From Bdellovibrionales bacterium GWA1_52_35 (GTDB taxonomy: Bacteria; Bdellovibrionota; UBA1018): 64,000 nt of DNA. The first letter of the stretch is position 1. Every line of letters starts with the position of its first letter. Where the stretch lies: the NCBI GenBank assembly GCA_001769805.1, contig MEPO01000021.1, positions 64,836-128,835 on the forward strand, written 5' to 3'. This document shows, piece by piece, positions 3,257 to 62,368 of the stretch. A program made the translations under genes and the position numbers. Below the pieces are notes generated by a model. The model had not been told where the DNA came from. It made no database searches and saw only the letters and a list, made by a program, of their open reading frames with translations.

Positions 3257-3408
3257 TCGCCGCCCGATTTTTTCTACTCGTCCGATTTAAAAAAAGCTCT
3301 TTCTTGAAATTTGCACTTGTTTGCATGTTGCAAAATGCTTTAGGGTGCACCGTATCAAACCCATTCGCAGGAGGCGGGTGATCAACAAAGCAAGAGAGAG
3401 GAATATTA

Positions 3409-4143: not shown

Positions 4144-4185
4144 TCGATTAACACTGCGCACAATAGCCGATAATCAAAGCGTTAA

Positions 4186-4216
4186 GACAAGAGCGGGGAT
4201 TCTCTCCGCTCTTGTC
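4186..4216. terminator. Strong hairpin between the peptidase gene and pruA (terminator or 5'UTR stem)
   Basis: GACAAGAGCGG-GGATTCTCT-CCGCTCTTGTC: perfect 11-bp inverted repeat; only a weak T tract follows. Confidence 0.5.
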
Positions 4217-4247
4217 CTCGTTTAGGGAATGTGCGAATTTCCCTTAC

Positions 4248-44478: not shown

Positions 44479-45423
44479 TTACTCCGTCGTCGCCGCCGTT
44501 ACGGTGATTTGATCGGAGTATGAGCCCGCCACCCGTCCAGAGCCGACAAAAGCGCCAATTCTGACGTTAATCGGATAAGCGCTTCCAGTCTGCAAAGTCG
44601 TTCCATTGGACGATAACCCAAGCACGGGAACAGCCAGGCTATTACTCATATTGAGCTGTACGCCGTTGACGTAGAAGAGATACGGCACAAGCGCCGCGCC
44701 GGCAGTATGTTTCATACTTCCATTATTTGCTGAAGAGAACCTGACCTCATAGCCCGCGTTGCTCCGCATGCGAATATCCATCGAGGAATTCTGTCCTGGA
44801 GCAAGCGTTCCGAAATTGATGTTCTTCGTGGTTTTTGATTCGTCAAATGCCCCACCCCCGTCCAGTAGCGACAATGCAATGATCTTCGGTATGTTTATCG
44901 TCAGCGTTACTGTTGTCGTGGCAACCGGTGTGACCCAGGTCAGTGGATCGGCACCTTCGTATACATTCAGGGTAAAAGAATCCGTGAATGAGCCCGAGTG
45001 ATACAAGGTAGCAGAATAGGGTACTTCGATAAAAAACTGAAGCTGATGCTGAGTCGTGTCGCCCTCCAGGTATGTGTCCAATATAACGTCAGTTGGTGCG
45101 GCGATATCCGGTACATCCTTCAAGGCAAATGTTTTAGTGGTGTCACCATAGATCTGGTAACGCGCCGAATTCGCGCCAACTGTTGCACGCCGAGTGGCAT
45201 AACTTGCTGCGCCACCTTTGGTAAACGCGATTCCATAACTGCATGCGGTCGAATTGCCCTTGGTGATCGTTAAGGTGAAGCTCTTGTAATCGAACGCCAT
45301 CGTCCAATCAATGCTTGGATTCCCGGCGGCGATACCAAGTCCACAGGCGGCGTTTGCGGTCGAAGTTCCGATCAAAGCAATTACAAACCACCCCACCGAA
45401 AACAGCAGATTCCGATAAATCAT
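44479..45423 (-). CDS. Two-domain spore-coat-U/CsuE-like pilus tip protein
   Basis: Signal peptide; N-terminal Cys pair, YGIAFTKG, RYQIY; INFGTL; C-terminal AGSYSDQITVT. Confidence 0.75.
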   Translation of the reverse strand: MIYRNLLFSVGWFVIALIGTSTANAACGLGIAAGNPSIDWTMAFDYKSFTLTITKGNSTACSYGIAFTKGGAASYATRRATVGANSARYQIYGDTTKTFALKDVPDIAAPTDVILDTYLEGDTTQHQLQFFIEVPYSATLYHSGSFTDSFTLNVYEGADPLTWVTPVATTTVTLTINIPKIIALSLLDGGGAFDESKTTKNINFGTLAPGQNSSMDIRMRSNAGYEVRFSSANNGSMKHTAGAALVPYLFYVNGVQLNMSNSLAVPVLGLSSNGTTLQTGSAYPINVRIGAFVGSGRVAGSYSDQITVTAATTE

Positions 45424-48053
45424 TGCTTGATCCTCTTGAGTCTGATTTTTCCCAAATCGATATATTCCGGACCATCCTCAGGAATGGTAAATGTGTACTT
45501 GTCCGCCGAGCCGTCCGACAGGTGAATTTCATACTGGCCCGGCTTGAAGCCTTCGATTCGCGTGCGTCCGCTGCGGGTTGTAAAAAACTGGACGTCCTTG
45601 AACTCCGCATCAGAGGCCGACGTGATTTTGCCAGGTTTGGTTACAACGGGAGAAGAATCGTCATCATACAGCAGATTGGCTCCAATGCTCATATACAAAT
45701 CGGTGCCCATTTTGACGAGGTATCCGCTCTTGTAGGGAGGCAGAAACCTGAAGGTATCTTTATCAAATCCCGCCTTGACCGCACTTTTGGCATTATCCGG
45801 CGTCACCTGGAGTACAAATGGCGAATAAGATGAAATTTCTGACATGACCGCGCCTCCTAAGTAGGAGGATTTGGCAAAGTACGCGGTGCTATCCGGCTTC
45901 CGGTTTAAGTATAATGTTTCGTCTTTCAGGTTTTTTTCCGCCGAGGCGAGGGCAAAGGTGTCCAATACCGGCCGCCCAATACCAAGGCGCCCCCCCGCGT
46001 AAACTAGCGCCGTTTGCGCCTGAATGCTGAAGTGATTCTGGGGTCCTGCAACCTGGCGAACCAACTGTCGCTGTCCCGTTGAATCTGAGACAGGCAGCTC
46101 CTGCGGTGGAAGCCATTTGGCGGAGTGATTCAGACCCACTACTCCTCTATTTCCGGTGTAGTTTCCACTTGCAGTGAATTCGCGATCATCTCGCGCCTTC
46201 TTGAGTCCGAGACGAACGTCATGCTTTCCAACTCCCGGTTCAGGTGAGGAATACGTCCAACCCAAAGCGGTTCCATCGTCTTTGGCATTATAACTTCCGC
46301 TGATGGATTGATGCTCTTCAGAGAAGTTCCAATTAAGGAAAATCGCGGCCGAGGTTTCCATCTGACCCGCGCTATTGCGATCCTCTCGCAAGGACAACGA
46401 GGCACTGGGGCCCTTTCGCCAGTTGCGCGAAACGCCGACACTTACACCAAAAGCATCATACGGAGTATTCACGGAGGGGCGCATCAGCGCATAATTGATT
46501 CCAAGACTCAACGTGCCGAAATCTCCGAGCGCCTGCCCGTACGATCCCGTCAAGGAATGAGCGACCGGTTGAAAATCCGAGAGCGTCCCAAATTGCGAGA
46601 AGCCCGGACTCGCTGATATCAAACCGAAAGCGTAACTTCGCTGTGATTTTTTGTGCCCTTCGTAGTCAATGGTGGAAAAACGACTGCGCAACGCAACGCC
46701 CGTACGCTTGCCGACGCCCGTATTGATCACGGGCTCAAAACCGAGCGAACCGAAGGGAGCAGTCAAAGCGGCCGCTCCCCCAACCAGCAGATCGCCTGAT
46801 CTGACCTGGATATTTGCACCCAAGGTGAGCACGTCGGAGTAGCCGTAACGATGGAAGAACGATCCGGTTATCTTGGTCTTGTCGTAATTCCGACTGAACC
46901 CGTTTTGCAGATAGGGTGCCCCGATAAAGTACCCCATGTCATGGACTCCGAGCCCCAATAGCTCCGAAGACGAGAAGAACGAATAACTCAGCTCCTCCTT
47001 CCGGCCCAAATCATCGATGATTTCAAATTTCAGGTCATTGGGACCAGCCATGAATGAGAAATCGGTCAAATCGTGGCGGCCGGCCGGAAGATCAATGGTT
47101 CTTATCGGAATGCCGTTGAGAATTGCTGTTACTTTTGAGGGCCGTTCCAAAAACATTTGGTACCGACCCACCTGCGTCGTCCGTCGAGAAGGGTTGAGCC
47201 CCGGCTTGTTCACCATACCGATCCCGCCCATTGGAATCGCAGACTGAAAACCTTGTAGCGCCAACGGCAGGTCTCCAGCATAGGCTCTGATTTGCTGCTT
47301 GGGAAAGTCCTTGATCAGCCGGAAATCCTGCCGGGCAAAGGTATTCCAATTTTCGAGTTTATATTTATTTTCGTATACTGAGACTGATCCTTCAAAGACA
47401 AGATCCGCAATACGGGTTCCGTTCTCAATCATTCCACGCATGGGCTGCCGGCCGCTTGTTGACGGATCAGCACCGAACTCATAATCCTGCGATGAACTTA
47501 TATTGAAAAAGGAACTGAACCAGGCAGGATCAGTGTCGGGTTGCTCAAGGCCAAAATCACCACTCCCCCCAAAAGACACCGAACCCTTGCGCCTGATCTG
47601 CGGAGGAATAGCCAGATGCAGTTCCAATTTCTTTTCGTTGTAGGTGAGCTGGTATGGCTTCCCGCTAAAATACGAGAGAGGAACCCAGCGCCCTCCCTGT
47701 TTCACTTCTTTCAGCTCGCTGCCGCTGATTTCAAGCGGGTCAAACTGAGCAGAGGGATCGAGCAAGCGGTCTAAAACTTTCTTCAGTTCGTCGCCGTCAA
47801 CCGAAATATCTTCCGGGTAGCTGCCGACCATGACAGGGATTTGTCCCTGCGGCTGCGGGTTACTCTCATAGAGCACTGGCATGACGATCGGAGCTTTCAG
47901 TTCGTCTTTCTTCTTTGTTCCAAATACCTTCTGAAATATTTCTTCATCCGAAGGCTCCGGTGGTGCTGCCAGTGCCTGCTGGGCACAGAACCCGCCAAGA
48001 TAAAAAAGCAATGCCAAGAGAGCATTGCCATTACTTCTCTTCGGGCAACTCAA
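45420..48053 (-). CDS. Fimbrial outer-membrane usher
   Basis: 877 aa; signal peptide; AGD, plug region PSKVTAILNG...LPAG...L.D...G.N, HRYGYSDVLTLG; barrel strands; coupled to chaperone and tip genes. Confidence 0.85.
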   Translation of the reverse strand: MSCPKRSNGNALLALLFYLGGFCAQQALAAPPEPSDEEIFQKVFGTKKKDELKAPIVMPVLYESNPQPQGQIPVMVGSYPEDISVDGDELKKVLDRLLDPSAQFDPLEISGSELKEVKQGGRWVPLSYFSGKPYQLTYNEKKLELHLAIPPQIRRKGSVSFGGSGDFGLEQPDTDPAWFSSFFNISSSQDYEFGADPSTSGRQPMRGMIENGTRIADLVFEGSVSVYENKYKLENWNTFARQDFRLIKDFPKQQIRAYAGDLPLALQGFQSAIPMGGIGMVNKPGLNPSRRTTQVGRYQMFLERPSKVTAILNGIPIRTIDLPAGRHDLTDFSFMAGPNDLKFEIIDDLGRKEELSYSFFSSSELLGLGVHDMGYFIGAPYLQNGFSRNYDKTKITGSFFHRYGYSDVLTLGANIQVRSGDLLVGGAAALTAPFGSLGFEPVINTGVGKRTGVALRSRFSTIDYEGHKKSQRSYAFGLISASPGFSQFGTLSDFQPVAHSLTGSYGQALGDFGTLSLGINYALMRPSVNTPYDAFGVSVGVSRNWRKGPSASLSLREDRNSAGQMETSAAIFLNWNFSEEHQSISGSYNAKDDGTALGWTYSSPEPGVGKHDVRLGLKKARDDREFTASGNYTGNRGVVGLNHSAKWLPPQELPVSDSTGQRQLVRQVAGPQNHFSIQAQTALVYAGGRLGIGRPVLDTFALASAEKNLKDETLYLNRKPDSTAYFAKSSYLGGAVMSEISSYSPFVLQVTPDNAKSAVKAGFDKDTFRFLPPYKSGYLVKMGTDLYMSIGANLLYDDDSSPVVTKPGKITSASDAEFKDVQFFTTRSGRTRIEGFKPGQYEIHLSDGSADKYTFTIPEDGPEYIDLGKIRLKRIKQ

Positions 48054-48798
48054 AAGTCACCTTGTAGGGCCCCGGTGGCAGTTGTGCAGGAGCAGTCAGG
48101 AAATGCCTTCTCATTTTCCCGGCCAAGACATTATCCCCCGCGAGTTTCTTGAACTCGTCCGCTCGCAATTCGATCGGAGCACCACTGGCGCCTGCTATTT
48201 TCAATACCAATTTTCTGGGTATGACATGTTTGGTGCCGGTATTTGTGATCTCCAGCTGAATTTTTCCTTGTTGATCCTTGAACTCCGGATCCGCCATTTT
48301 GGCGATGATTTGCAATTCGGGCTTTGCTTCGGGTGGTGTTATGTAAACAGATCCGACGTACTTGGTGGCAATAAGGATTTTGGCGCGAGTACGCATATCG
48401 CTTGACTCAGGTTCCATTGAAAAGGGTAGTTCTTCCGCAATCAAACGGAAGCTCAATTCGGAAGTCACCTTCGGTTGCCCAATCCACGAAACGCGAACCG
48501 TGCGAAGGTCATTGGCGTTCAAAATTAATTGCGAGGGGTAGATTTGGAAAAGATCATCGATTTCAGGGGTTTCTTTATATTCCTCTGATCCGTCAGGTTT
48601 GGGTTCACGATGCACGATATAGAGCATCACGGGAACCTTTTGATCTGTCGGATTGCGAACGGTAATTGCGACGCTTGATCTTGGTCCAGATGGCGCAAGC
48701 TCGTTGATCACGGGTCCAAAAGTAAAGCCGGCGAAGGCGGCGGTTCCAGTGATGCTGCCCATAACAGACACTGCTGCCAAAATGATAAAGTGCCTCAT
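48031..48798 (-). CDS. Periplasmic pilus chaperone (PapD/CsuC-like)
   Basis: Signal peptide; YPSQLIL, VRV, ELSFRLIAEELP, VYITP, NTGTKH; RBS AAGGAGG. Confidence 0.85.
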   Translation of the reverse strand: MRHFIILAAVSVMGSITGTAAFAGFTFGPVINELAPSGPRSSVAITVRNPTDQKVPVMLYIVHREPKPDGSEEYKETPEIDDLFQIYPSQLILNANDLRTVRVSWIGQPKVTSELSFRLIAEELPFSMEPESSDMRTRAKILIATKYVGSVYITPPEAKPELQIIAKMADPEFKDQQGKIQLEITNTGTKHVIPRKLVLKIAGASGAPIELRADEFKKLAGDNVLAGKMRRHFLTAPAQLPPGPYKVTFELPEEK

Positions 48799-48850
48799 GA
48801 AACCTCCTTTTTTCGGTGAGCACGTAGAATTTATCATCCTTTTCAGTTTT

Positions 48851-48894
48851 ACAAAAGAAAAAGGGCGCTGCAACTCCGAAGAGTTGCAGCGCCC
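48851..48894 (-). terminator. Rho-independent terminator after pilin 1
   Basis: Minus strand GGGCGCTGCAACTC-TTCG-GAGTTGCAGCGCCC (14-bp perfect stem, cUUCGg loop), then TTTTTCTTTT. Confidence 0.92.
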
Positions 48895-48899
48895 GCATC

Positions 48900-48918
48900 A
48901 CAAGAACCGTTTCTAAAC
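48900..48918. repeat. Inverted repeat arm downstream of pilin 1 (partner at 49534-49554)
   Basis: ACAAGAACCG-TTT-CTAAAC on + here; ACAAGAACCG-CGGTC-CTAAAC on - at 49554-49534. Confidence 0.65.
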
Positions 48919-48928
48919 GTTGAGTAAC

Positions 48929-49516
48929 TTATTCAGACGTCATGGTGAAGGTCAGGACGTCCTTATAGACACCGGCCAGAGGAAGGGCCACATCCGGAGC
49001 ATCCCAGGTGCCGGTGAAAGAGCAATCTTCTTCAAGACCGCTGCTGACCGTACCAGCCAGATCCGCCGCAGTTACTGAATGAAGGTCTTTACCAGCACCA
49101 CCCGAAACGATGTCAGCGGCAGCTATTGATACTACCGTTCCAGCGCCGCCGGCCGTTGTCGTTCCGATGGTTTTACAGGTTGCCGCATCACCCATCGCTT
49201 CATAAGTCATTACACCCGTCCAGTCGACACCTGCATTCTGAAGTTTACCGGATGCCGTGGATGATTTTACAATCAAGGACGCGATGTCTTGATTATATTT
49301 CACGTGCAAGATGCCGAGCAAACGGTCATTGACGTCATTGAATCCGCTCAAGTCCAAATCACCGGGCACGCCACGCACCCAGAGTTCGAAGAACACCGGA
49401 ACGTTGCCGCTTAGGTTGATCTGTCCTTGTACCACGTCAGTTGGCGCAGCAAATACGTTGGAAGTAACTCCCACAATCATAAAAGTCGCTAAAGCCACCA
49501 GTTTCTTGAAACTCAT
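48929..49516 (-). CDS. Pilin 1, putative major subunit of the chaperone-usher pilus
   Basis: 195 aa; signal peptide; GQINLSGNV donor-strand-like N-terminus; 2 Cys; C-terminal LAGVYKDVLTFT; RBS GAGGAG. Confidence 0.75.
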   Translation of the reverse strand: MSFKKLVALATFMIVGVTSNVFAAPTDVVQGQINLSGNVPVFFELWVRGVPGDLDLSGFNDVNDRLLGILHVKYNQDIASLIVKSSTASGKLQNAGVDWTGVMTYEAMGDAATCKTIGTTTAGGAGTVVSIAAADIVSGGAGKDLHSVTAADLAGTVSSGLEEDCSFTGTWDAPDVALPLAGVYKDVLTFTMTSE

Positions 49517-49571
49517 ATATTTTAATCTCCTCTGTTTAGGACCGCGGTTCTTGTAAGCAGTCTCAGTTTTC

Positions 49572-49598
49572 ATATCGGTGTAATTCCAAAATGGTTGA
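49572..49598 (-). promoter_or_regulatory. sigma28 (FliA)-like promoter of pilin 1
   Basis: Minus strand TCAA-N15-ACCGATAT. Confidence 0.6.
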
Positions 49599-49667
49599 GG
49601 GGTTCCGGATAGTTTCATTCGCTGCAAATGAGCTGAATTGGAAAATGCGTTGTCACACATAGACATG

Positions 49668-49750
49668 ATGCGTTGCGCATTTTTCAAATTATTTTTATTT
49701 CTTTGTTAACTAAGCTCGTTTTATCCATGCGCACCGCACTGCGTCGCGCA
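49668..49750. promoter_or_regulatory. Three TGCG-N3-CGCA palindromes (candidate operators)
   Basis: 49669-49679, 49728-49738 and 49740-49750, flanking an AT-rich spacer. Confidence 0.5.
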
Positions 49751-49828
49751 GGTTTTTACCCAGAACCGTCAAAAAATCCCCTCATTTCAAACGAATTTCT
49801 GCATGAGACACTATTGACTGGTGCACGG

Positions 49829-50602
49829 ATGAAACCAAACCAGACCCCGGGGAATAATAGCCACTTGGACGATCCTTCACGAGTCGCAGAGATTCGTGAA
49901 AAAATTCGGAAGAAGGAATTCCTTCGCGCCCTCTACCTCGAGACGTATTCCAAGTACTCCGCCTGTCTTAAGCGTTGCCCTGCCTCCGGCCAAATTCTCG
50001 AACTCGGCTCAGGCGGCGGATTTTCCAAAGAAGTGATTCCCCAGCTCATCACCTCCGACATCATTCCGTACGAAGGTGTTGACCGTATTGTGGACGCCAC
50101 TCAGATCCCTTTCCCGGACCGCTCCCTCCGTGCCATCTTTTTATTCAACGTCTTTCATCACATTCCCGACGTCAGAGCATTTTTCCGCGAAGCCATGCGC
50201 TGCCTCGTTCCCGGAGGGCGAATATTGATTATTGATCCGTACTTTGGGTGGATCAGCAGCCCCATTTACAACTATCTCCATCATGAGCCGAGCTCCAAAT
50301 CCGTTGAGAAATGGGAATTTGAATCCAGCGGTCCTCTTTCAGATGCGAACATCGCGCTGGCCTGGATAGTCTTTCAAAGAGACCGCGCTATTTTCGAGAG
50401 CGAATTCGCCAAGCTCAACCTTGTGAGCTATAAGCCCCACTCGCCGCTTCGCTATTGGATTTCTGGTGGGCTCAAAAACTGGTCGCTTGCCTCGGGATCA
50501 CAATTTGAAACCTGGTCCAAAATTGACAACGCCCTGATCTCGCTCTCGGAGAAATTTGCGAGCTTCGTCGATATTGAACTCGTCAAACAAACAGACCAAT
50601 AG
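49829..50602 (+). CDS. Class I SAM-dependent methyltransferase
   Basis: ILELGSGGG, DA..IPF, VFHHI, LVPGGR. Its stop abuts the stop of the TMTC-like gene. Confidence 0.85.
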   Translation: MKPNQTPGNNSHLDDPSRVAEIREKIRKKEFLRALYLETYSKYSACLKRCPASGQILELGSGGGFSKEVIPQLITSDIIPYEGVDRIVDATQIPFPDRSLRAIFLFNVFHHIPDVRAFFREAMRCLVPGGRILIIDPYFGWISSPIYNYLHHEPSSKSVEKWEFESSGPLSDANIALAWIVFQRDRAIFESEFAKLNLVSYKPHSPLRYWISGGLKNWSLASGSQFETWSKIDNALISLSEKFASFVDIELVKQTDQ

Positions 50603-52609
50603 CTATCTCGAGTCTGGCTGCGCCTTCTTCTGCGCCATCCTGACGACTTCGAGATTGGCGCGGCTCCGTGAATCCTCAGGGTTCAACCTCAAGGCTTCCG
50701 TAAACTGTTCTATGGATTCTTCAAATCGTCCTGCAGAAAACAGTGCGATACCGAAATTGGCGCGTGCCTTGGCCAATTCAGGACTGATCTCAATCGCACG
50801 CTGAAAGTGACTGATCGCTTTATTGAGTTCTTTTTGCATCGCCAGTGCAATCCCCAGGTTGACATAAGCTTCAGCCCACTTGGGCTTCAGTCGCAAAGCC
50901 TCTTCATAGTGTCCTTGCGCCTCCCTGGGCTGCTGCATTGCCGCGAGAACAATCCCAAGATTATTGTGAGCCTCCGGGTAATAAGGGTCAAGCTGCAAGG
51001 CCTTCTGGAGGTATTCCTTCGCTTGCTCATGCTTGTTCTGGCTCATTAATACGTGTCCTAAATTATTATAGGCTGGGGCATATTCCGCGTTCAGTCTCAT
51101 GGCTTTTTGATGATTTGTGATCGCCTCATCGACCAAGCCCTTCGCCGCGAGAGCAACTCCGAGATTACTTAGAGTTTCAGGGAAATCCGGCTTCAACTCC
51201 AAGGCCGCCCGATAACTCACGATCGCCTCGTCAATACGCCCTTCTTGAGCCAGTGCGATTCCTTGATTGCTGTAAGCCTCGTAGTACACCGGCCTGATCT
51301 TCACCGCCTCACGATAGTGTTCGATTGCTGCTGTTGTATTTCCCTCCGAAGCCAGCGCAACACCCAGGTTATTATGAGCTACGTAATTCCGACTGGTCGA
51401 GGCAAGCGCATGAGCAAAAAGACTGCGACTATCTTTCCAGTAATGCACTTCCGTATATGCCACCGTGCCAAGTGCAAGCAGCACAACTGAACCTGCTATG
51501 CCCAGCACCCTTTGATTTTTGACCCAGTCCGCAACGCCCCAGGTCACCATTATGAAAAGTCCAACAAGCGGAATATAGGTATAGCGATCGGCCATTGCTT
51601 GATTGCCTGCTTGAATAATTCCGATCACGGGCAAAAGAGTTCCGAGAAACCAAAACCACCCGGTGAGGAGAGCGGAAGACTTCTGAGATCGAAAACTTGC
51701 GCGAAGAACAGCGCTTGTCACCAGCAAAAGACTAAGACTCGCGACAATGACGGATGCTGGCGATATCGTCTCCGGATACGGGTAAAATACAGACAAATTG
51801 CTTGGCCAAAACATCTTGGCGATATATTGCCCATAAGAAATAATCGCATTTGCCAGCCGCGAACCAAAAGAGATGTACCCGAGAGACGCCACCGACCCGC
51901 CCTCGTGTACGACCACGAACGTGATGACACTCAGAACGAGCGCCAAAGCAAACAATGGCATCTTTTCCATGATGCGCGTTTTAAAACTTTCGCGAGTGAA
52001 GCTCAGCCGGTTCAACGGCCAGTAATCCATCAAGAGCAGTACTGCGGGCAGGGTGACCGCCATGGGCTTGGACATCAGCGCCCCGGCGACAGCGAGCATC
52101 ACTGCCCAGTACCTTTGCTTGCCTGAATTTTCGGCGTATCGGGCATACAGCCATAAGGTCAGCATCCAGAAGAACCCACTCATGACATCCTTGCGCTCGG
52201 CAATCCAGGCTACAGATTCTACATGGAGCGGGTGTATGGCAAAAAGCGCGGCCACAAAGCCACTGCGCCAGGGCGCCGCGGTCATTCGCTGAAGCGCCGC
52301 AAAGAGCAATACAGTGGCTAAAAGATGCAGAAGCAGATTGGTCATGTGGTGGCCCGCAGGATTGAGCCCAAAGAGCTGGACATCGACCATGTGGGAGATC
52401 ATGGACAGTGGCCGCCAATAGTCGACATCCTTTGTGGTCAATGCCCAAATGACTCCGCCCACCGTCAAGCCGGCCCTCACCTGTGGATTTTCAGTTACAA
52501 AAATGTTGTCGTCGTAATTGATAAAGTCATGGTTCTTGACCTGAAAGAACACAGCGCTCGTAATCAATACCAGGAAAAGAACAATCCAGCGGGTCGTATA
52601 ATGCTTCAC
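50603..52609 (-). CDS. TMTC-like GT-C glycosyltransferase with C-terminal TPR array (copy B)
   Basis: FINYDD, YWRPL, HPLHVESVAWIAERKD, SKPM, ADRYTYIP, WKDS; about 11 TM helices; about 7 TPRs (AHNNLG). Confidence 0.85.
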   Translation of the reverse strand: MKHYTTRWIVLFLVLITSAVFFQVKNHDFINYDDNIFVTENPQVRAGLTVGGVIWALTTKDVDYWRPLSMISHMVDVQLFGLNPAGHHMTNLLLHLLATVLLFAALQRMTAAPWRSGFVAALFAIHPLHVESVAWIAERKDVMSGFFWMLTLWLYARYAENSGKQRYWAVMLAVAGALMSKPMAVTLPAVLLLMDYWPLNRLSFTRESFKTRIMEKMPLFALALVLSVITFVVVHEGGSVASLGYISFGSRLANAIISYGQYIAKMFWPSNLSVFYPYPETISPASVIVASLSLLLVTSAVLRASFRSQKSSALLTGWFWFLGTLLPVIGIIQAGNQAMADRYTYIPLVGLFIMVTWGVADWVKNQRVLGIAGSVVLLALGTVAYTEVHYWKDSRSLFAHALASTSRNYVAHNNLGVALASEGNTTAAIEHYREAVKIRPVYYEAYSNQGIALAQEGRIDEAIVSYRAALELKPDFPETLSNLGVALAAKGLVDEAITNHQKAMRLNAEYAPAYNNLGHVLMSQNKHEQAKEYLQKALQLDPYYPEAHNNLGIVLAAMQQPREAQGHYEEALRLKPKWAEAYVNLGIALAMQKELNKAISHFQRAIEISPELAKARANFGIALFSAGRFEESIEQFTEALRLNPEDSRSRANLEVVRMAQKKAQPDSR

Positions 52610-54393
52610 TTTGTTTCGTGCTCCTTGCCTGAACCGGTGATCGCTTGATTAAGTGTCTCGGCCAGCTTCCAGTTCATCGTTTTCAACTTTTCATATTCGA
52701 GGATAGCTGCCTTCCGGTCGCCCTTCATCAAATAAACCAAGCCAAGTGAAAAATGAGCCTTGTGGAAGGAAGGATCAAGTTGCAGTGCCCGGCTGAAGTG
52801 TTCAATCGCCTCATCCAGTCGACCTTGGGAGACCAGCGCGGTACCCAGCAGGCCTTCTGATCTTGCCGATAGCAGTCCAGACTTCGCCTGTTCCAGAAGT
52901 GCACTTTCGAGGTTCTTGTGGGCTTTCAAAAAACCAGGCCGGATTTTGAGGGCCTCAACAAAATGATTGATCGCCTCCTCTATTTGCCCCTTGCCCTTCA
53001 ACGCGACACCAAGATTGTTGTGAGCCGCAGGATTTGCGGGTCTGATGCGCAAAGACTCCCGATAATGCACCATCGCTTCATCCACCTTGCCATCTTCGGC
53101 CAAGGCCACACCCAAATTGTCATGGGCCAGCCAATTATCTGTGGTGATTTCAAGCGCACGACTAAATAATGAAATACTGTCCTTCCAGTAACGTGCCTGG
53201 ACATGACTTGTGACCCCCAATGAAACCAGAATCACGGCAGCTGAAGCGGCCAGCGCTTTCGCAGAAATCCGGGAGGGGATACTCCAGGCAAGCATGATGA
53301 AGAGCCCGATGAACGGAAGATAGGTATAGCGGTCTGCCAAAGCTTGCGGTCCCGTTTGCACAAATCCAATTACGGGAACCAACATGATGAGGAACAACGA
53401 CCAACCCACAACAAAATATGGCCGCGACTTCCGCGCTCGAGCTGCGAGAAATGAAATCGCAACCAGCAAAATAGTGCTGATAATGATCTTCAGAAGGGGA
53501 ATGTCTCTCAAATATGGGTAGATGACCGAAAGATTGGCGGGCCAGAACACCTTTTCAACATAAACCGCGTAGGCCACAAGCGCGTTCGCAAGTTTTTCTT
53601 GGGCAGAAATCGGCCCCATTGCCTCTTCGATCCCAAGCTTCGACACCACTAAATACGTAACCGCGCTGACAATCAGCGCTGCCGCGATAAACGGCAGCTT
53701 TTCGACTATTAACCGCTTGATGGAATGGTCAAAACGGAGCCGTTTTAACGGCCAGTAATCAAAGAGCAGGAGAGCCAGAGGCAGGGTGACCACCATCGGT
53801 TTGGACATCAAGGCACAGACATAAAGCAGAAAGGTGACCAAATATGTTTTTAGGCCCGGTTTGACGGTGTACTGAACATAGGCTCCGATTGTCAGAATCC
53901 AGAACAGTCCCGCTAAGAGATCTTTTCTCTCTGCAACCCAGGTGACCGATTCCACATGAGCCGGATGGAGCGCAAACAATGCGGCGACAAAGGCACTTCT
54001 CCAGATTGTATCGTTTTGTATGCCGTTCTGTATCCCGTTCTGCATGCCTTCCCTCACACCGGTGAGGCGCATCAGGACCAGAAAGAGCAAAAGGGAGTTC
54101 ATGATATGGAGAATGACATTCGTAAGGTGATGCCCGCCCGGGTCAAGACCGAACAGTTCACAATCAAGCATGTGAGAAATCATCGTAAGGGGGTGCCAGT
54201 AATCCACATTCGTCGAAACGAACGCCCAGCGAATTCCCTCCCATGTCAGACCCGCCTGGACCCGCTCGTTATGAGTTACAAATACAGTATCGTCGTAATT
54301 GATGAAATCGTGGCCGCCCAGCTGCCAATAGATCGCGCCGGTCGCGACGCACAGGCAAATCCCGATCAGTACCGCTATTTTGTTTTTCACCAT
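52606..54393 (-). CDS. TMTC-like GT-C glycosyltransferase with TPRs (copy A)
   Basis: Same motifs (FINYDD, YWHPL, HPAHVESVTWVAERKD, ADRYTYLP, WKDS); fewer TPRs; ATG 54393 lies 5 nt after the pilin 2 stop. Confidence 0.85.
   Translation of the reverse strand: MVKNKIAVLIGICLCVATGAIYWQLGGHDFINYDDTVFVTHNERVQAGLTWEGIRWAFVSTNVDYWHPLTMISHMLDCELFGLDPGGHHLTNVILHIMNSLLLFLVLMRLTGVREGMQNGIQNGIQNDTIWRSAFVAALFALHPAHVESVTWVAERKDLLAGLFWILTIGAYVQYTVKPGLKTYLVTFLLYVCALMSKPMVVTLPLALLLFDYWPLKRLRFDHSIKRLIVEKLPFIAAALIVSAVTYLVVSKLGIEEAMGPISAQEKLANALVAYAVYVEKVFWPANLSVIYPYLRDIPLLKIIISTILLVAISFLAARARKSRPYFVVGWSLFLIMLVPVIGFVQTGPQALADRYTYLPFIGLFIMLAWSIPSRISAKALAASAAVILVSLGVTSHVQARYWKDSISLFSRALEITTDNWLAHDNLGVALAEDGKVDEAMVHYRESLRIRPANPAAHNNLGVALKGKGQIEEAINHFVEALKIRPGFLKAHKNLESALLEQAKSGLLSARSEGLLGTALVSQGRLDEAIEHFSRALQLDPSFHKAHFSLGLVYLMKGDRKAAILEYEKLKTMNWKLAETLNQAITGSGKEHETK
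54013..54048. repeat. Three imperfect in-frame 12-nt tandem repeats in TMTC-like A
   Basis: GTTTTGTATGCC / GTTCTGTATCCC / GTTCTGCATGCC, encoding GMQN-GIQN-GIQN. Confidence 0.75.
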
Positions 54394-54398
54394 AGGAG

Positions 54399-54974
54399 TT
54401 ATTGAGAAACCATCGTTGCGGTAATTTTCATTGAGTAAGTGCCTGCCAACGGTAGATCCTTGGCAACACCTGTCCAGCTGGCTGTAACCGGACAATCCTC
54501 CTCAAGACCCGAGCTGAAGTTGGCTGCCAGATCCTCAACATGCGCATGATGAACATCCATTCCGCCGCCCATGGTTGTGCCCGCTGCATTGCCCGAGGGA
54601 ATGGTTACACTCGCAACAGCACCCGCTGAACCTCCGACGGTTTTACAAGCCGCTCCGCCCCAAACTTTGTAACTGATTGCTCCACCCCAGTCTTCGGCAC
54701 CGTTCATCGGTTTCCCATTTGCTTCAGTCGACTGCAGCGTGAGGCTTGCCATATCTATGTTGTATTTGAGGTGCAAAAGTCCCAGTGTCCGGTCATTCAC
54801 GATCGCGCGCGGGCTCAAGTCCAAGTCTCCGGGCACTCCGCGCACCCATAATTCAAAATATGCGGGCACGGTACCCGTTAGATTGATGTATCCAGTGACC
54901 GTGTCGGCGCGCGCAGACACAAGCCACGCAGCAGCCAGCACAAAAGTCAGGATCGCTAATTTTTGGAAACCCAT
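54399..54974 (-). CDS. Pilin 2 (paralog of pilin 1)
   Basis: 191 aa; signal peptide; GYINLTGTVP, ELWVRGVPGDLDL, GLEEDC, LPLAGTY; RBS GAGGTG. Confidence 0.75.
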   Translation of the reverse strand: MGFQKLAILTFVLAAAWLVSARADTVTGYINLTGTVPAYFELWVRGVPGDLDLSPRAIVNDRTLGLLHLKYNIDMASLTLQSTEANGKPMNGAEDWGGAISYKVWGGAACKTVGGSAGAVASVTIPSGNAAGTTMGGGMDVHHAHVEDLAANFSSGLEEDCPVTASWTGVAKDLPLAGTYSMKITATMVSQ

Positions 54975-55026
54975 TAAATACACCTCATGTGTAAACATGA
55001 TTCCCTACAGTTCCATCTTGACTGAT

Positions 55027-55054
55027 TATTCGGCCAAAGTGGCAGTGAAATTTA
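55027..55054 (-). promoter_or_regulatory. sigma28-like promoter of pilin 2-TMTC-TMTC
   Basis: Minus strand TAAA-N16-GCCGAATA. Confidence 0.6.
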
Positions 55055-55153
55055 AAAAATGTGCAAATTCTTCGAGAAATTCGCGATTTTATCGGAATTT
55101 TTATCCCGTCGGAATTTTTGATCCGGCAAGATTTGCCGGATGCGGCAAAATGA

Positions 55154-55732
55154 TTATAGCGAAACCATCGTAATCGTAATCTTCATCATGAAGACGCCGG
55201 CAAGCGGTAAATCCTGATTCACGCCCGACCACGAAGCCATCACCGGACAATCTTCCTCGAGCCCGTATCCGAAGTTTGTGGCCAGATCCTGTACATCGGG
55301 ATGATGAACGTCAGCACCGCCGCCCAGCTGGCCAACTGCTGGCCCCGAAGGAATCAGTTGACTGGCAACGCCGCCTGCAGCACCGCCCACAGTCATGCAA
55401 GTTGCTCCGCCACCTACTTTGAAAGTCATGGTTCCACCCCAAACGCTCGCGCCATTGTGGAGTTTTCCGTCCAGCGTATCGGATTTGAATGTCAAACTCT
55501 GCAAATTGAGGTTGTACTTCAAATGCATGATTCCGAGTAACCTGTCATTCACGATAATTCTCGGTCCAAGGTCCAGATCACCCGGCACACCTCTGACCCA
55601 GATTTCAAAAAATGCGGGCACATTTCCGCTCAGGTTGATATAGGCTTCGGCCTGATCCGCGCCACTGGGTGTGGGCGGGCTTGAGAGAAACAGAACCAAA
55701 ACAGCTACAGCAATCAGCCGCCTGATTTTCAT
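55154..55732 (-). CDS. Pilin 3 (paralog of pilins 1 and 2)
   Basis: 192 aa; signal peptide; YINLSGNVP, EIWVRGVPGDLDL, GLEEDC, LPLAGVF. Confidence 0.75.
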   Translation of the reverse strand: MKIRRLIAVAVLVLFLSSPPTPSGADQAEAYINLSGNVPAFFEIWVRGVPGDLDLGPRIIVNDRLLGIMHLKYNLNLQSLTFKSDTLDGKLHNGASVWGGTMTFKVGGGATCMTVGGAAGGVASQLIPSGPAVGQLGGGADVHHPDVQDLATNFGYGLEEDCPVMASWSGVNQDLPLAGVFMMKITITMVSL

Positions 55733-55805
55733 AAAGGTCTGCCTTTCGCGGACGGACCCATGGCGTCCTCAGTGGGACTGGTGGCCACGGTTACGTCTCA
55801 TCCTC

Positions 55806-55833
55806 TTATCGGCGTATTTTTTTCAGGAATTGA
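55806..55833 (-). promoter_or_regulatory. sigma28-like promoter of pilin 3
   Basis: Minus strand TCAA-N16-GCCGATAA (perfect -10 box). Confidence 0.65.
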
Positions 55834-55945
55834 TCACTTTATGCGCGCTGCATTATACGCAGTGCGACACGAATATATGCTTGATACTTAAGCAACTATT
55901 TAGTTTAGAATTGTTAACATTTCTAAATAATTATTGCCGCGCGAC

Positions 55946-57295
55946 CTATCGTTTTGGTGAAGACCCCACCCGAATTCTGAACAGTCCCACCAGAGTCATT
56001 CTAAGCAAGGTCAGACCGTCCCGGAATCTCCGGATATTGGTTGTACCGTAGGTCCTCGCGCGGTAGCGCACTGGAACGTCTACCACCCCCAAGCCCAAAA
56101 TCGCTGCGGGGAAAAGAAGTTCAAAATCCCCGAATGGATCGAAATCACCAAAATCTTTGCGCCATTCGACAATGCGCGCGTAATCGCGCCGGGAAAGCAA
56201 TTTGGTTCCGCAGAGTGAGTCGCCCAATCGCTGCTCAAGCACACTGCTAAGCGCTTTGGCGAAAAAGACGTTTCCAAGCTTGTTCAAAAAGCGCATCGCC
56301 TCACCCTCCATTGGATAAACGAGGCGGCTACCGTTGACGAAGTCCGCATGCCCCTGGACATAAGCTTCATAAAACCTGCCCAGCAGTTCCGGTGGCATCG
56401 TCAGATCGGCGTCCAAAATGGTAAGTACCTCTCCGCTCGCCTGTGAAAAGCCGAGCCGGACAGCATCTGCCTTTCCTTTTCCGGTTTGCTGAAAAGCTTT
56501 GATGCGTACCCTGCCTATATGCGCTTTTACAACACGTTCGATTTCCTCCCAGGTACCATCCGAAGAGTGCCCTTCGACAAATATCATTTCTATTTCACAC
56601 CCCAGGTCAGGTAGGCGCTCAATAGCAGAGGCAATATTTCCTTTTTCATTCCGTGCGGGAATCACAATCGAAAGACTGGGGCGCTCTTTGGAGTGAATGA
56701 CTGGTCTCAAAACGACGACCTCAGCAAGTGAGAACCAACGAATAATCGGCGTCGCCGCAAGCACGCGGTTGATCCAAGTCCCCACCCCGAGCAGTTCCCA
56801 TGGAAGGAAGATGCAGGATCGCTCACGGACAACTTCATAGCCCGAAATGCGAGCGAGATTAGTAATATCAACTCGCGTGAAAAAAGAGGTCGGAGCTCTC
56901 GCCTTGCGAATGCGAAAGCGCGAAGCCAAATTGTAAAACCACTGCATGTAAGAGCTATATAAAACGGCAATGACCCTGCTATGTCTCGAAAGCCTGGGAA
57001 GCGCCGTCATAAGTTCAGCCTGGATATCAAAACAGTAATTGAAATTCCCATTGATCAGCAGAGCACCGCGGTGCTCTGCTTTTTTTGACCAGTCTGGAAA
57101 ATCTTGGAGCGACGTAACAAACGCCTTCTGACGGGCGTCAATCAAATTGACCAAAATTGACTCGCTTGGGTCCTTGCCCTCAGACGGCGTCTCACTCACG
57201 GCAATCGCCCGAACACATACCAAATCATCGCAGTAGCGGGTAATTCTCGATATTTCCGCTGCCAGCAATCCATATACAGATTTTCGCCAGGACAT
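55946..57295 (-). CDS. GT2 glycosyltransferase (DPM1/polyprenol-P-sugar synthase-like) with a degenerate N-terminal domain
   Basis: SIVIPARNE, VEGHSSDGT, GKADAVR.GF, ILDADL (DxD), GSRL, DSLCGTK, DPFGDF. Confidence 0.85.
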   Translation of the reverse strand: MSWRKSVYGLLAAEISRITRYCDDLVCVRAIAVSETPSEGKDPSESILVNLIDARQKAFVTSLQDFPDWSKKAEHRGALLINGNFNYCFDIQAELMTALPRLSRHSRVIAVLYSSYMQWFYNLASRFRIRKARAPTSFFTRVDITNLARISGYEVVRERSCIFLPWELLGVGTWINRVLAATPIIRWFSLAEVVVLRPVIHSKERPSLSIVIPARNEKGNIASAIERLPDLGCEIEMIFVEGHSSDGTWEEIERVVKAHIGRVRIKAFQQTGKGKADAVRLGFSQASGEVLTILDADLTMPPELLGRFYEAYVQGHADFVNGSRLVYPMEGEAMRFLNKLGNVFFAKALSSVLEQRLGDSLCGTKLLSRRDYARIVEWRKDFGDFDPFGDFELLFPAAILGLGVVDVPVRYRARTYGTTNIRRFRDGLTLLRMTLVGLFRIRVGSSPKR

Positions 57296-57306
57296 CTGGT
57301 ATTTCC

Positions 57307-58158
57307 TCAGAAATTGTGGGTCAAAACCATATTACGGGAGGATCCGACAGGAATCCCGAGCCTGAGCAACGCCGCATCGCGAGGCCATTCCCTTGTCTTT
57401 CCGACTTCCCTGAAACGGTAACCCGCCTTGCTTAAAAAATTCACGAAATCTTCAAAGCTCTCGCCCTTTTTGTCGAACTGATACGGCGAAAACTCTAGAA
57501 CGAGAACAGGGTGATATTTTTCGATGACGCCCCGGGCGCCCGAGATCACCTCTCCCTCGAACCCATCAACGTCGATTTTCATCAAGTCAATCTTCACTCC
57601 CGGATGATTCTTTTCAAGAAATTCATCCAGAGCATAAACGGCAGCATCGCCGACTGGCATGGGTTTCCCGCAAACCTCGGCATCGGTTCCTGATTGATCA
57701 TCCAGCGGCCAGCTGGACCAAAGCTCCCCGGGCGCCTTCTGCTGCGAGGATGACAGGAGAAGAGCACGGTGCGGCTCGATGCGCGACTTCAATTCCGGAT
57801 TCAGTCCAATGTTCACGGAAAGCTTTTCAAAAGCGTATGCAGTGGGCTCAAAAGCGAGAACACGCCCAGTGGAACCAACACACCTGGCCAGCGGTAGCGT
57901 GTGTGCCCCGATATTCGCTCCTACATCGACCACCGTGCTGCCTGGACTGATATATTTTTTGTATGCTCGGATCGTTGACCACTCAAACCGGCCAAAGACA
58001 TAGATCGTCAGGTCAATCGCCTCGTCAAGATCCAGGCTCCAGCAAATTCCAAACCGTTGAGTTACAGCCTTCCTCGGTAATCGCGCGATCTTTCGAACGG
58101 CGCTCAAGCCCAAATACCCCATGCGGGCCAGGAATATCTTTTGGCGAGTGGCTAACAT
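57307..58158 (-). CDS. FkbM-family methyltransferase
   Basis: VDVGANIG, AFEP, MKIDVDGFE, G, P.L.LE. Confidence 0.9.
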   Translation of the reverse strand: MLATRQKIFLARMGYLGLSAVRKIARLPRKAVTQRFGICWSLDLDEAIDLTIYVFGRFEWSTIRAYKKYISPGSTVVDVGANIGAHTLPLARCVGSTGRVLAFEPTAYAFEKLSVNIGLNPELKSRIEPHRALLLSSSQQKAPGELWSSWPLDDQSGTDAEVCGKPMPVGDAAVYALDEFLEKNHPGVKIDLMKIDVDGFEGEVISGARGVIEKYHPVLVLEFSPYQFDKKGESFEDFVNFLSKAGYRFREVGKTREWPRDAALLRLGIPVGSSRNMVLTHNF

Positions 58159-58291
58159 AATTAAAAAATAGTACCACCCCCGCGAACAGGCAGTCCAATG
58201 CTTTCCCTGACGCAACGCACGACTTTCAAAGGTTCATTAACACCCGAACCCGGTGATTTTTTCCGAGAAACTGTTAAGCTGTAAAATGTAA

Positions 58292-58693
58292 ATGTCTTTT
58301 AAAACGGGTGTTCTTAATATTGCCTTGGTCCTGCTGCTGACTTGCTTCGGCTGTGGCAAAGCCGTTTCCACTTCGCCGAACGATGCGGCGCCGGTGGGAG
58401 GAACCATTGTCGCCACAGGCGCGTTCAGCGGCGCTGTTACAGGAACCGTAAGCGTCTACAGCATGGGATCGAATTCTTATATAATCCGGCTTGTTGGCCT
58501 GTCGGCTCCCGCCGAAGCCGGAATCCAGATGATCCCCTGGGTGAACAGTGCCGCGGCGACCACGTTCACGTTGCGTGCCGCTACCGGAAACCAAAACTAT
58601 AATCTCACAGCCTCCGGAACTCTCGTCTGGAACAAGATCGTCATCCGCTCGTCAAGTCAGGCCCGCGATCTGGATGAAGCCCCTCTGCGGTGA
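58292..58693 (+). CDS. Lipoprotein with a DM13-like domain
   Basis: Lipobox FG-C; G.F...GTV.V, LRAATGNQNY, KIVI pattern. Confidence 0.5.
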   Translation: MSFKTGVLNIALVLLLTCFGCGKAVSTSPNDAAPVGGTIVATGAFSGAVTGTVSVYSMGSNSYIIRLVGLSAPAEAGIQMIPWVNSAAATTFTLRAATGNQNYNLTASGTLVWNKIVIRSSSQARDLDEAPLR

Positions 58694-60222: not shown

Positions 60223-61383
60223 ATGGCTTCGCAGACACTCCACATACTGGGAGTGATGACCGGGACCTCCTGTGATGGACTGGATGCCGCCTGCATTTCG
60301 ATTTCCAAGGATGGCTGGACTCCCCTTTGGTCGGCCGCCCGCCCCTACCCCTCGCACCTGCGCAAGGAAGTCCTTGATTTTCAACGCCCGAAAAGCCGGG
60401 TAAGCGCCCAGGAGTGGCTCGATCTGCACCGGCGGCTGGGAGAATGGTATGGCCGGGAACTGAAAAGGATCATTTCGAAAAATGGAGTTCCCGATGCGAT
60501 TGCCAATCACGGGCAAACCATCGCGCATTATCCTGCCAAAGGTCATCGCGGCATCACGCTCCAGATGGGTGAACCCACACGCATTGCCCACGCAACAGGA
60601 ATTACCGTCGTTTCCAATTTCCGCGATGGCGATATGGCCGCCGGCGGACAAGGGGCGCCGCTGACCCCCTTATTCCACCGTTTACTGGCCCAAGGGATTG
60701 ACAAGAGTTCGCGCGGAATTTCAATCCATAACCTGGGAGGGATCAGCAATCTCACCTACATCGGACCGGAAGATTTTCTGCTCGCGTTTGATACCGGCCC
60801 TGCGAATATCTGGATTGACGCCGCAACTGAACGTGCCACGAAAGGCAAACGCAAATTCGATAAAGGTGGCAAGCTCGCCCTTACCGGCGAGATTGACTGG
60901 CCCGCAATGGATCGCCTTTTGAAGCATCCTTACTTTTCAAAGTCCGCTCCCAAGTCCACGGGACGCGATGATTTCCCGGTTGAGTACTTTTTCAAAAACA
61001 CCAAAGCCAAAGGCGCCAATCTGGTCGCGACAGCCACAGCCCTGACCGTGGAGTCAATCGCCCAAGCTTATGAAAAAGTGATTTTGGCCCGCAAACTTCC
61101 ACTATCGACGATTTACTTCTGCGGCGGAGGAGCGCAAAATCCTGCAATTCTTGCGGCCCTCAGTGAACGCCTACCCGCCGTTAAAATTACCACTCTCGCG
61201 CAAGTCGGCCTGGACGGTCAGCTCATCGAAGCCCAGGCTTTTGCGTTTTACGGATTCCTTTCACTGCTCGGCCAGCCTCTGGGTGGAAGCTGGACGGGTG
61301 CCGCCAGCTTCGGGCCGCCGGGCCACATTGTTCCCGGAAAAAACTGGCTGGCACTCGCACGCAAAATCCAGGAAGTTTCTTAA
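60223..61383 (+). CDS. anmK: Anhydro-N-acetylmuramic acid kinase
   Basis: GVMTGTSCDGLD, HGQT, GGQGAPL, NLGGISN, FDTGPAN, PKSTGR, CGGG. Confidence 0.93.
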   Translation: MASQTLHILGVMTGTSCDGLDAACISISKDGWTPLWSAARPYPSHLRKEVLDFQRPKSRVSAQEWLDLHRRLGEWYGRELKRIISKNGVPDAIANHGQTIAHYPAKGHRGITLQMGEPTRIAHATGITVVSNFRDGDMAAGGQGAPLTPLFHRLLAQGIDKSSRGISIHNLGGISNLTYIGPEDFLLAFDTGPANIWIDAATERATKGKRKFDKGGKLALTGEIDWPAMDRLLKHPYFSKSAPKSTGRDDFPVEYFFKNTKAKGANLVATATALTVESIAQAYEKVILARKLPLSTIYFCGGGAQNPAILAALSERLPAVKITTLAQVGLDGQLIEAQAFAFYGFLSLLGQPLGGSWTGAASFGPPGHIVPGKNWLALARKIQEVS

Positions 61384-62366: not shown

Positions 62367-62368
62367 GA

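Follow-up and report, generated by a model that had tools for sequence, protein, structure and literature searches.

The stretch of DNA analyzed here (hereafter, the window) consists of 64,000 nucleotides (nt) of contig MEPO01000021.1 (C21 below) of Bdellovibrionales bacterium GWA1_52_35, an uncultured groundwater bacterium of the predatory type that is represented by a metagenome-assembled genome (MAG; a 3.7-Mb draft in 35 contigs, 92.6% complete). Between positions 44479 and 58215 of the window on C21, a chaperone-usher pilus operon is followed by two additional pilin genes, genes for two tandem proteins that combine a GT-C-like membrane domain with TPR repeats (denoted here TMTC-A and TMTC-B, for their likeness in architecture to the eukaryotic TMTC proteins), and genes for a GT2 glycosyltransferase and two methyltransferases. 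The original prediction, made from the sequence of the window alone, described this locus as encoding a candidate chaperone-usher pilus that would be glycosylated by TMTC-type enzymes encoded with it. Genes were called from a listing of open reading frames (ORFs) combined with Pfam and NCBIfam scans, and weakly matching families were re-tested with profiles of orthologs, AlphaFold2 models and Foldseek searches. Gene content, order and positions came out as originally described:

44479–45423, minus strand: two-domain SCPU-type subunit, putative tip or adhesin (314 amino acids (aa); Pfam SCPU), last gene of the pilus operon
45420–48053, minus strand: outer-membrane usher (877 aa; profile and predicted fold match FimD)
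48031–48798, minus strand: periplasmic chaperone (about 255 aa; ORF open to 48873, start uncertain; profile matches CsuC)
48863–48894, minus strand: strong terminator-like hairpin in the gap between pilin 1 and the chaperone (14-bp stem with 10 G-C pairs, then a run of T)
48929–49516, minus strand: pilin 1, candidate major subunit of the core operon (signal peptide, two Cys, C-terminal strand)
49673–50602, plus strand: class I S-adenosylmethionine-dependent methyltransferase (Pfam Methyltransf_11, E = 6.3e-11), convergent with TMTC-B
50603–52609, minus strand: TMTC-B, GT-C-like membrane domain followed by about 7 TPR repeats (668 aa; PMT_2, TPR_1)
52606–54393, minus strand: TMTC-A, GT-C-like membrane domain followed by TPR repeats (595 aa; TPR families)
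54399–54998, minus strand: pilin 2, probable start at 54974, paralog of pilins 1 and 3
55154–55732, minus strand: pilin 3, paralog and sister of pilin 2
55946–57295, minus strand: GT2, candidate polyprenol-phosphate sugar synthase (449 aa; Pfam Glycos_transf_2; N-terminal extension of about 200 aa)
57307–58215, minus strand: FkbM-family methyltransferase, probable start at 58158 (Pfam Methyltransf_21, E = 1.3e-21; TIGR01444, E = 5.1e-22)

Because the class I methyltransferase is encoded on the opposite strand, abutting TMTC-B tail to tail with zero gap, the minus-strand genes form two units rather than one, namely, pilin 1-chaperone-usher-tip and FkbM-GT2-pilin 3-pilin 2-TMTC-A-TMTC-B. Within the second unit, the junction read directly in the sequence consists of the TAA of pilin 2, 5 bases and the ATG of TMTC-A, and the ORF coordinates place a 4-nt overlap between TMTC-A and TMTC-B, in agreement with the spacing reported originally; the terminator scan detected no terminator-like site between pilin 2 and TMTC-A. 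The close coupling of pilin 2 to TMTC-A stands as originally described. The enclosure of the glycosylation genes between pilin genes holds for the methyltransferase and both TMTC genes but not for GT2 and FkbM, which lie outside. A promoter scan of the locus yielded 11 sites, compared with a mean of 12.1 in shuffled sequence; with no excess over the shuffled sequence, no promoter is claimed here.

The gene arrangement is not an artefact of assembly. Contigs from run X4 span positions 49152–51030 and 51025–56296, and a contig from run X6 spans positions 54166–57571; the junctions bridged by separate runs are those between the methyltransferase and TMTC-B, those connecting TMTC-B, TMTC-A, pilin 2 and pilin 3, and those connecting pilin 2, pilin 3, GT2 and FkbM. 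Run X7, which comes from a different study and produced short contigs only, gives depth in 30 of the 30 bins, with 10 single-base differences. The G+C content is even across the region (0.48–0.54).

Of the three Pfam families by which the original prediction proposed to recognize the pilus genes, SCPU matches the tip subunit (E = 3.3e-08, in two stretches), whereas Usher and PapD_N match nothing; indeed, the usher and the chaperone produced no match at all in Pfam or NCBIfam, even at E = 10. Profiles built from orthologs were informative. The usher profile (39 orthologs) matches the solved structures of FimD (E = 3e-18) and PapC (E = 3.6e-12), and the AlphaFold2 model of the usher (mean predicted local distance difference test score (pLDDT) of 85.4) matches full-length FimD in Foldseek (E = 1e-33; template modelling (TM) score by target, 0.66–0.71). 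The chaperone profile (48 orthologs) matches CsuC (E = 2.7e-14) as well as CfaA and EcpB, and the profile of the tip subunit (35 orthologs) matches the CsuE pilin domain (E = 4.6e-05) and, weakly, CsuA/B. Because of these profile and fold matches, together with the chaperone-pilin 2 model described below, we conclude that the window contains an archaic (Csu/CupE-like) chaperone-usher operon in the order pilin 1, chaperone, usher, two-domain SCPU subunit, so that the chaperone-usher locus of the original prediction is genuine. The operon differs from those of Csu and CupE in two ways: at the sequence level, its major pilins resemble neither SCPU nor a pilin of solved structure, and its usher and chaperone go unrecognized by Pfam. 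The gap between pilin 1 and the chaperone is the usual position of an attenuator in pilus operons, and the hairpin at 48863–48894 is possibly an attenuator that sets the pilin:chaperone ratio.

This system, which the Usher and PapD families of Pfam fail to detect, was found with the chaperone profile in 94 of the 401 sampled genomes of Bdellovibrionota, about a quarter; judging by these sequence matches, Csu-like chaperone-usher operons are common in the phylum. Among the genomes with a related chaperone, those that are named are MAGs of Bdellovibrionota carrying the labels Oligoflexia, Bdellovibrionales and Bacteriovoracaceae. More distant copies of the chaperone system were observed in Wenzhouxiangella and in one Rickettsiales MAG. 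In one related locus (L009, positions 1995–5438, from Bdellovibrionales GWB1_55_8), the usher and the two-domain subunit form a single frame of 1147 aa, which could be either a fusion or a sequencing error; the usher frame of another locus (L047) is over-long too, at 1115 aa.

Pilins 1–3 are paralogous (61–62% identity between pilins 2 and 3, 47–49% for the other pairs) and form a clade in the pilin tree (support 100/97) within which pilins 2 and 3 are sisters (95/90); this topology implies duplication within this lineage. Pilin 1 has a signal peptide, the two conserved Cys and the conserved C-terminal strand, and pilins 2 and 3 retain these features along with the N-terminal segment conserved in the family; pilin 1 is located upstream of the chaperone, as is the case in 7 related loci. 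The Gly/Ala-rich loop that follows the first Cys comprises 32–33 residues in the window pilins compared with 18–25 in 12 homologs, that is, it is longer by about 10 residues. The pilins have no match in Pfam, SCPU included, the pilin profile has none among solved structures, and alignment of the pilin profile with the tip profile gives an hhalign probability of 9.5%; in the ESM Atlas, the only leads are one cluster named DUF4402 and one cluster with 14% SCPU. With a pLDDT of 69.4, the AlphaFold2 model of pilin 2 is of medium confidence, and the structures that it matches best in Foldseek are nearly all chaperone-usher pilins (CS20, CfaB, Caf1, PapE, FimA and CsuA/B), with weak E-values of 1e-3 to 0.1.

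The model of the complex between the chaperone and pilin 2 has an ipSAE of 0.68, compared with 0.06 for the best control, the runs agree in at least 89% of the contacts, and the pLDDT of the partners is at least 79; of 80 solved complexes, 58 reached the mark applied to such models, as did 2 of 110 mismatched pairs. In the modelled interface, residues 135–150 of the chaperone, a strand, lie against the C-terminal strand of pilin 2 (residues 175–191), an arrangement that, in the model, resembles donor-strand complementation; given that solved chaperone-subunit complexes exist, the high score may partly reflect likeness to them. The distribution of the pilin family is patchy, with members in 4 of the 61 relatives, the genome of the window included. 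A scan of genome contigs with the pilin alignment found no relative, the chaperone alignment gave 7 loci, and the pilin-alignment scan of metagenome contigs returned a single 2.3-kb contig with a pilin and a partial chaperone, too short for neighbours (L093).

TMTC-A and TMTC-B are tandem paralogs, 50% identical in the membrane domain. Each consists of a multi-pass membrane domain, in which the first hydrophobic helix is immediately followed by the motif HDFINYDD, and of TPR repeats at the C-terminus (Pfam TPR_1, E = 1e-56 for TMTC-B and 1.9e-27 for TMTC-A). The DD pair (residues 33–34 of TMTC-B and 34–35 of TMTC-A, right after the first transmembrane helix) is invariant in all 11 aligned GT-C domains, namely those of TMTC-A, TMTC-B and 9 homologs. 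The observation that both proteins keep the first-loop DD pair was borne out, and the tandem pair, with this GT-C-like membrane domain and TPR repeats in both members, is genuine. A crude hydropathy count gives 8–9 helices per protein, which is too rough to settle the topology, and the profile of the membrane domain matches no solved structure. Apart from one distant 504-aa GT-C protein encoded elsewhere, these are the sole GT-C+TPR genes of the genome.

The search of the protein database with TMTC-A was saturated, with at least 7999 relatives at E ≤ 1e-5 among the 8000 candidates scored. The best non-self matches listed are 44–51% identical and carry source names such as “TPR repeat protein,” “protein O-mannosyl-transferase” and “PilF/TadD,” and many of the database homologs contain PF13231. 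On this sequence evidence, the GT-C+TPR proteins appear to constitute a very large bacterial family whose members are mostly annotated as “TPR repeat protein.” Among the 30 named ESM Atlas clusters nearest to TMTC-A, 22 have PMT_2 on 21–30% of their members and a eukaryotic DUF1736 cluster ranks 17th; the Atlas model of TMTC-A (predicted TM score of 0.85) matches many clusters of bacterial TPR proteins over residues 1–400, with TM scores of 0.93–0.94.

The GT2 protein (Pfam Glycos_transf_2, E = 1.3e-24) has the Dol-P-Man synthase of P. furiosus (E = 1.5e-14), ArnC and GtrB as its best solved relatives, and the top ones are all polyprenol-phosphate glycosyltransferases. The best NCBIfam resemblances, to AglJ, PgfS (E = 2.5e-14) and Dol-P-hexose transferase, are all below the respective cut-offs. 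GT2 is therefore similar to polyprenol-P-sugar synthases, as had been proposed, and by its sequence fits such an enzyme as a candidate. The unit FkbM-GT2-pilin 3-pilin 2-TMTC-A-TMTC-B is a lineage-specific one that embeds two recent pilin duplicates in a putative module for glycosylation from a lipid-linked sugar. The N-terminal part of GT2, about 200 aa (55946–56560 in the window), matches no family and contains one hydrophobic segment (residues 178–196).

Several characterized systems resemble this unit in one respect or another. TfpW of P. aeruginosa is a GT-C protein with a periplasmic TPR domain, its gene is located directly downstream of pilA, and its loss abolishes pilin glycosylation (bioRxiv 10.1101/2020.04.19.049825). 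The original prediction overlooked this enzyme when it stated that bacterial TMTC-like proteins have no established substrates. TfpW is like TMTC-A in description, being encoded directly downstream of, and co-oriented with, a pilin gene (with the 5-nt gap in our case), but differs in that TfpW, the arabinosyltransferase of group IV type IV pilins, acts on a type IV pilin and receives its donor, polyprenol-P-D-Araf, from a separate cluster. In S. mutans, the co-transcribed genes cnm-pgfS-pgfM1-pgfE-pgfM2, with pgfS downstream of cnm, encode the substrate, a GT-A enzyme and two GT-C enzymes (PMC5856776, PMC12041528). The adhesin gene is accompanied, like the pilin genes of the window, by a GT-A/GT2 gene and two paralogous GT-C genes, and the transfer is extracytoplasmic, as it would be in the window; however, the Pgf system is Gram-positive, it modifies disordered, Ser/Thr-rich parts of adhesins that are anchored to the wall, it has an epimerase in place of methyltransferases, and PgfM1 and PgfM2 are described, in the available portions of these papers, without the TPR domain that is present in TMTC-A and TMTC-B.

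Closer to the pilus itself, the cryo-electron microscopy structure of the archaic pilin CupE1 shows additional density at a Ser/Thr loop, which the authors of the study interpret as a possible O-glycan (bioRxiv 10.1101/2022.04.14.488289), with no glycosylation enzyme named in the available part of that preprint. The pairing of a GT2-type polyprenol-P-sugar synthase with a GT-C transferase is also typical of the GtrB/GtrA/GT-C and GtrB-PgtC2 glycosylation systems (PMC12041528, PMC11127046), from which the window locus differs by the lack of a detected GtrA-like flippase and by its acceptor, which here would be a folded Ig-like pilin. With the eukaryotic O-mannosyltransferases TMTC1-4, TMTC-A and TMTC-B share a multi-pass domain that in the window proteins is GT-C-like, TPR repeats that here, too, would lie on the non-cytoplasmic side, and the first-loop DD pair, which corresponds to M1 of the TMTC motifs M1–M7 defined in PMC7801869; by eye, RKD resembles M3 (RxD), DRYTY resembles M7 (ERxxY), and LFAxHPxH resembles a segment of TMTC3 (PMC7801869). 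Our literature search, the coverage of which is thin for subscription journals, turned up no publication on a glycosyltransferase dedicated to chaperone-usher pilins, none on bacterial TMTC-like proteins or chaperone-usher pili of Bdellovibrio, and none on bacterial Ephrin_rec_like proteins (see below) paired with glycosyltransferases.

We propose a pathway in which GT2 would load a sugar onto polyprenol phosphate at the cytoplasmic face of the membrane, a flippase would turn the lipid-linked sugar to the periplasmic side, and TMTC-A and TMTC-B, with the DD site and the TPR domain facing the periplasm, would transfer the sugar onto the co-expressed pilins before or during their capture by the chaperone. 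The usher would then assemble the decorated fibre, and the two methyltransferases would methylate the sugar. We consider the chance that the TMTC pair glycosylates pilins 2 and 3, perhaps along with pilin 1, to be nearly even, with a slight tilt towards doubt. The broader proposal, in which a GT-C+TPR module for O-glycosylation was recruited in this lineage and decorates its chaperone-usher pilins in the periplasm, is put forward tentatively, as a possibility that falls short of an even chance. In this scheme, we infer the donor sugar, the orientation of the TMTC proteins, the co-transcription and the role of the pilins as acceptors, the latter from the gene order of one lineage; a sugar-decorated pilus is plausible.

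Several observations weigh against this proposal. Pfam TMTC_DUF1736 matches 0 of the 11 GT-C domains at E ≤ 1, whereas the human TMTCs all match this family, which covers the loop between transmembrane helices 7 and 8, at E < 1e-30 (PMC7801869). PMT_2 matches 2 of the 11 domains (TMTC-B, at 26.8 bits, just exceeds the cut-off of 26.1, whereas TMTC-A is not matched). Because TMTC_DUF1736 is not matched and, unlike in TMTC1-4, the motifs M2, M4, M5 and M6 are not clear by eye, we withhold the TMTC-family label that had been applied to the two proteins; we class them as bacterial GT-C+TPR proteins with a TMTC-like architecture rather than as members of the TMTC family proper. No GtrA-like flippase was seen in the locus, either by eye or by Pfam, the latter for the larger ORFs only. 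The pilins were originally called Ser/Thr-rich; their S+T content is only 11.5–17.4%, below the 14.9–22.6% of 12 homologs from loci without TMTC neighbours. Finally, the locus comes from the DNA of an uncultured groundwater MAG.

Comparative genomics points in the same direction. We collected 47 related pilus loci (40 loci of 4–20 kb around chaperones and 7 from the chaperone-alignment scan, several of them cut by contig ends); tblastn detected the usher in 43 of these and the two-domain subunit, which comes after the usher, in 38. At E ≤ 1e-3, all 47 loci lack homologs of TMTC-A/B, of GT2, of FkbM and of the class I methyltransferase. The best sub-threshold match (E = 0.008) is to a generic methyltransferase stretch, and the best one for the TMTCs has E = 0.29; the locus that was fully inspected (L008) has a TetR-efflux cluster and the gene for a PD40 protein on its flanks. 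TMTC-like membrane domains are encoded in 58 of the 401 genomes of the phylum (E ≤ 1e-10), the best of them only 36–40% identical and from other families. Both systems co-occur in 15 of the 401 genomes, compared with 13.6 expected by chance; in the 14 of these besides the genome of the window, the chaperone gene and the TMTC-like gene are separated by 309 kb or more or are located on different contigs. Linkage between the two was thus seen in 0 of the 93 chaperone-positive genomes other than that of the window. Conversely, pilus genes were found in 0 of the 8 nearest TMTC loci (best E, 0.56). The pairing of pilus and glycosylation genes was seen once, in this lineage only. Given that none of the 47 pilus loci has TMTC neighbours, the association of these pilins with TMTC, GT2 and FkbM genes across genomes, a survey of which was proposed with the original prediction, is refuted at the level of the family, and what remains is a single-lineage arrangement.

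The neighbourhoods of the nearest TMTC homologs bear on the same question from another side. In 4 of the 5 nearest loci (L085, L086, L088 and L089), the TMTC homolog, located at about 9.3–11.2 kb in each, is found 1–4 kb from a gene for a secreted protein or lipoprotein with Cys-rich Ephrin_rec_like (PF07699) repeats:

L085, 5268–7148: Ephrin_rec_like repeat gene
L086, 12723–13388: Ephrin_rec_like repeat gene
L088, 7887–9224: Ephrin_rec_like repeat gene
L089, 7947–9437: Ephrin_rec_like repeat gene
L087, 6163–7155 and 11208–13475: type IV pilin-like N_methyl genes and YfhO-like gene next to the TMTC homolog

A whole-genome search for PF07699 placed every match in that single TMTC-adjacent gene in each of the four genomes, and the same search of the genome of the window gave no match. 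A small GT2 gene and an NAD-dependent epimerase gene are located beside the TMTC homolog in 3 of the 4 loci with Ephrin_rec_like genes. In the fifth locus (L087, from genome G240), the TMTC homolog is convergent with the type IV pilin-like N_methyl genes and divergent from the gene for the YfhO-like membrane protein, an arrangement that recalls pilA-tfpW of P. aeruginosa. With a dedicated Ephrin_rec_like neighbour in 4 of the 5 loci, the TMTC module appears to travel with one secreted protein, and in the window, the place of this secreted partner seems to be taken by the pilins. The Ephrin_rec_like protein and the TMTC homolog are a candidate conserved enzyme-client pair for the bacterial GT-C+TPR proteins.

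An alternative that we regard as quite possible, albeit well under an even chance, is that these genes are adjacent but functionally unrelated: GT2, the two TMTC proteins and the methyltransferases would act on some other periplasmic or outer-membrane protein, a glycolipid or a polysaccharide, and the pilin duplicates would have landed among or beside their genes through a lineage-specific rearrangement. In favour of this alternative, the association is unique to one lineage, and relatives that lack the glycosylation genes (L045–L047) commonly have further pilin paralogs dispersed around the core operon; furthermore, most members of the very large GT-C+TPR family are not encoded beside pili, and the pilins contain no Ser/Thr-rich tracts. 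Chance adjacency is harder to reconcile with the 5-nt gap and the lack of a terminator-like site between pilin 2 and TMTC-A, both of which argue for obligatory co-expression, with the dedicated secreted neighbour kept by the nearest TMTC homologs, and with the absence of the Ephrin_rec_like partner found elsewhere from this very genome.

Glycosylation of pilins 2 and 3 by the TMTC pair could also take place outside the fibre, if these two proteins are secreted or periplasmic glycoproteins, or else regulators or terminators of assembly that diverged from pilin 1. We deem this version unlikely: the location of pilins 2 and 3 in a transcription unit separate from that of the chaperone and usher, with pilin 1 alone at the canonical place upstream of the chaperone, would fit it, but the conserved features of the family, from the signal peptide and the pair of Cys to the N-terminal segment and C-terminal strand, are all retained in both proteins, and the model puts pilin 2 on the chaperone as in donor-strand complementation. 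A further alternative is that the assembler fused pilus genes and glycosylation genes of separate origin, from two organisms or two genomic locations, the genome being a metagenome-assembled draft in 35 contigs; considering the bridging of the junctions by contigs from separate runs, the coverage of all bins by the run from another study and the even G+C content, a chimera of this kind is extremely improbable.

If our tentative reading, the decoration of chaperone-usher pilins by a recruited GT-C+TPR module, is correct, the locus would encode a glycosylation system dedicated to a chaperone-usher pilus, the first of its kind, and, together with the Ephrin_rec_like neighbours, would provide the first concrete substrate assignments for the very large bacterial TMTC-like family, each enzyme being paired with its own secreted client. 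Periplasmic O-glycosylation, known for type IV pili, would thereby extend to chaperone-usher fibres, for which CupE1 is the only hint so far; this would be an application of the known GT-C mechanism to chaperone-usher pilins rather than a new principle. The locus offers a simple, testable enzyme-substrate pair, with GT-C enzymes encoded translationally close to small, easily expressed secreted proteins.

Two further observations concern the flank of the locus. Between FkbM and the next minus-strand gene, a plus-strand ORF of 133 aa with a lipoprotein-like signal is located at 58292–58693. Farther along, at 60223–63475 in the window, AnmK adjoins an NTP-transferase and an APH-type kinase, a layout that we take to resemble the AmgK/MurU pair of peptidoglycan recycling.

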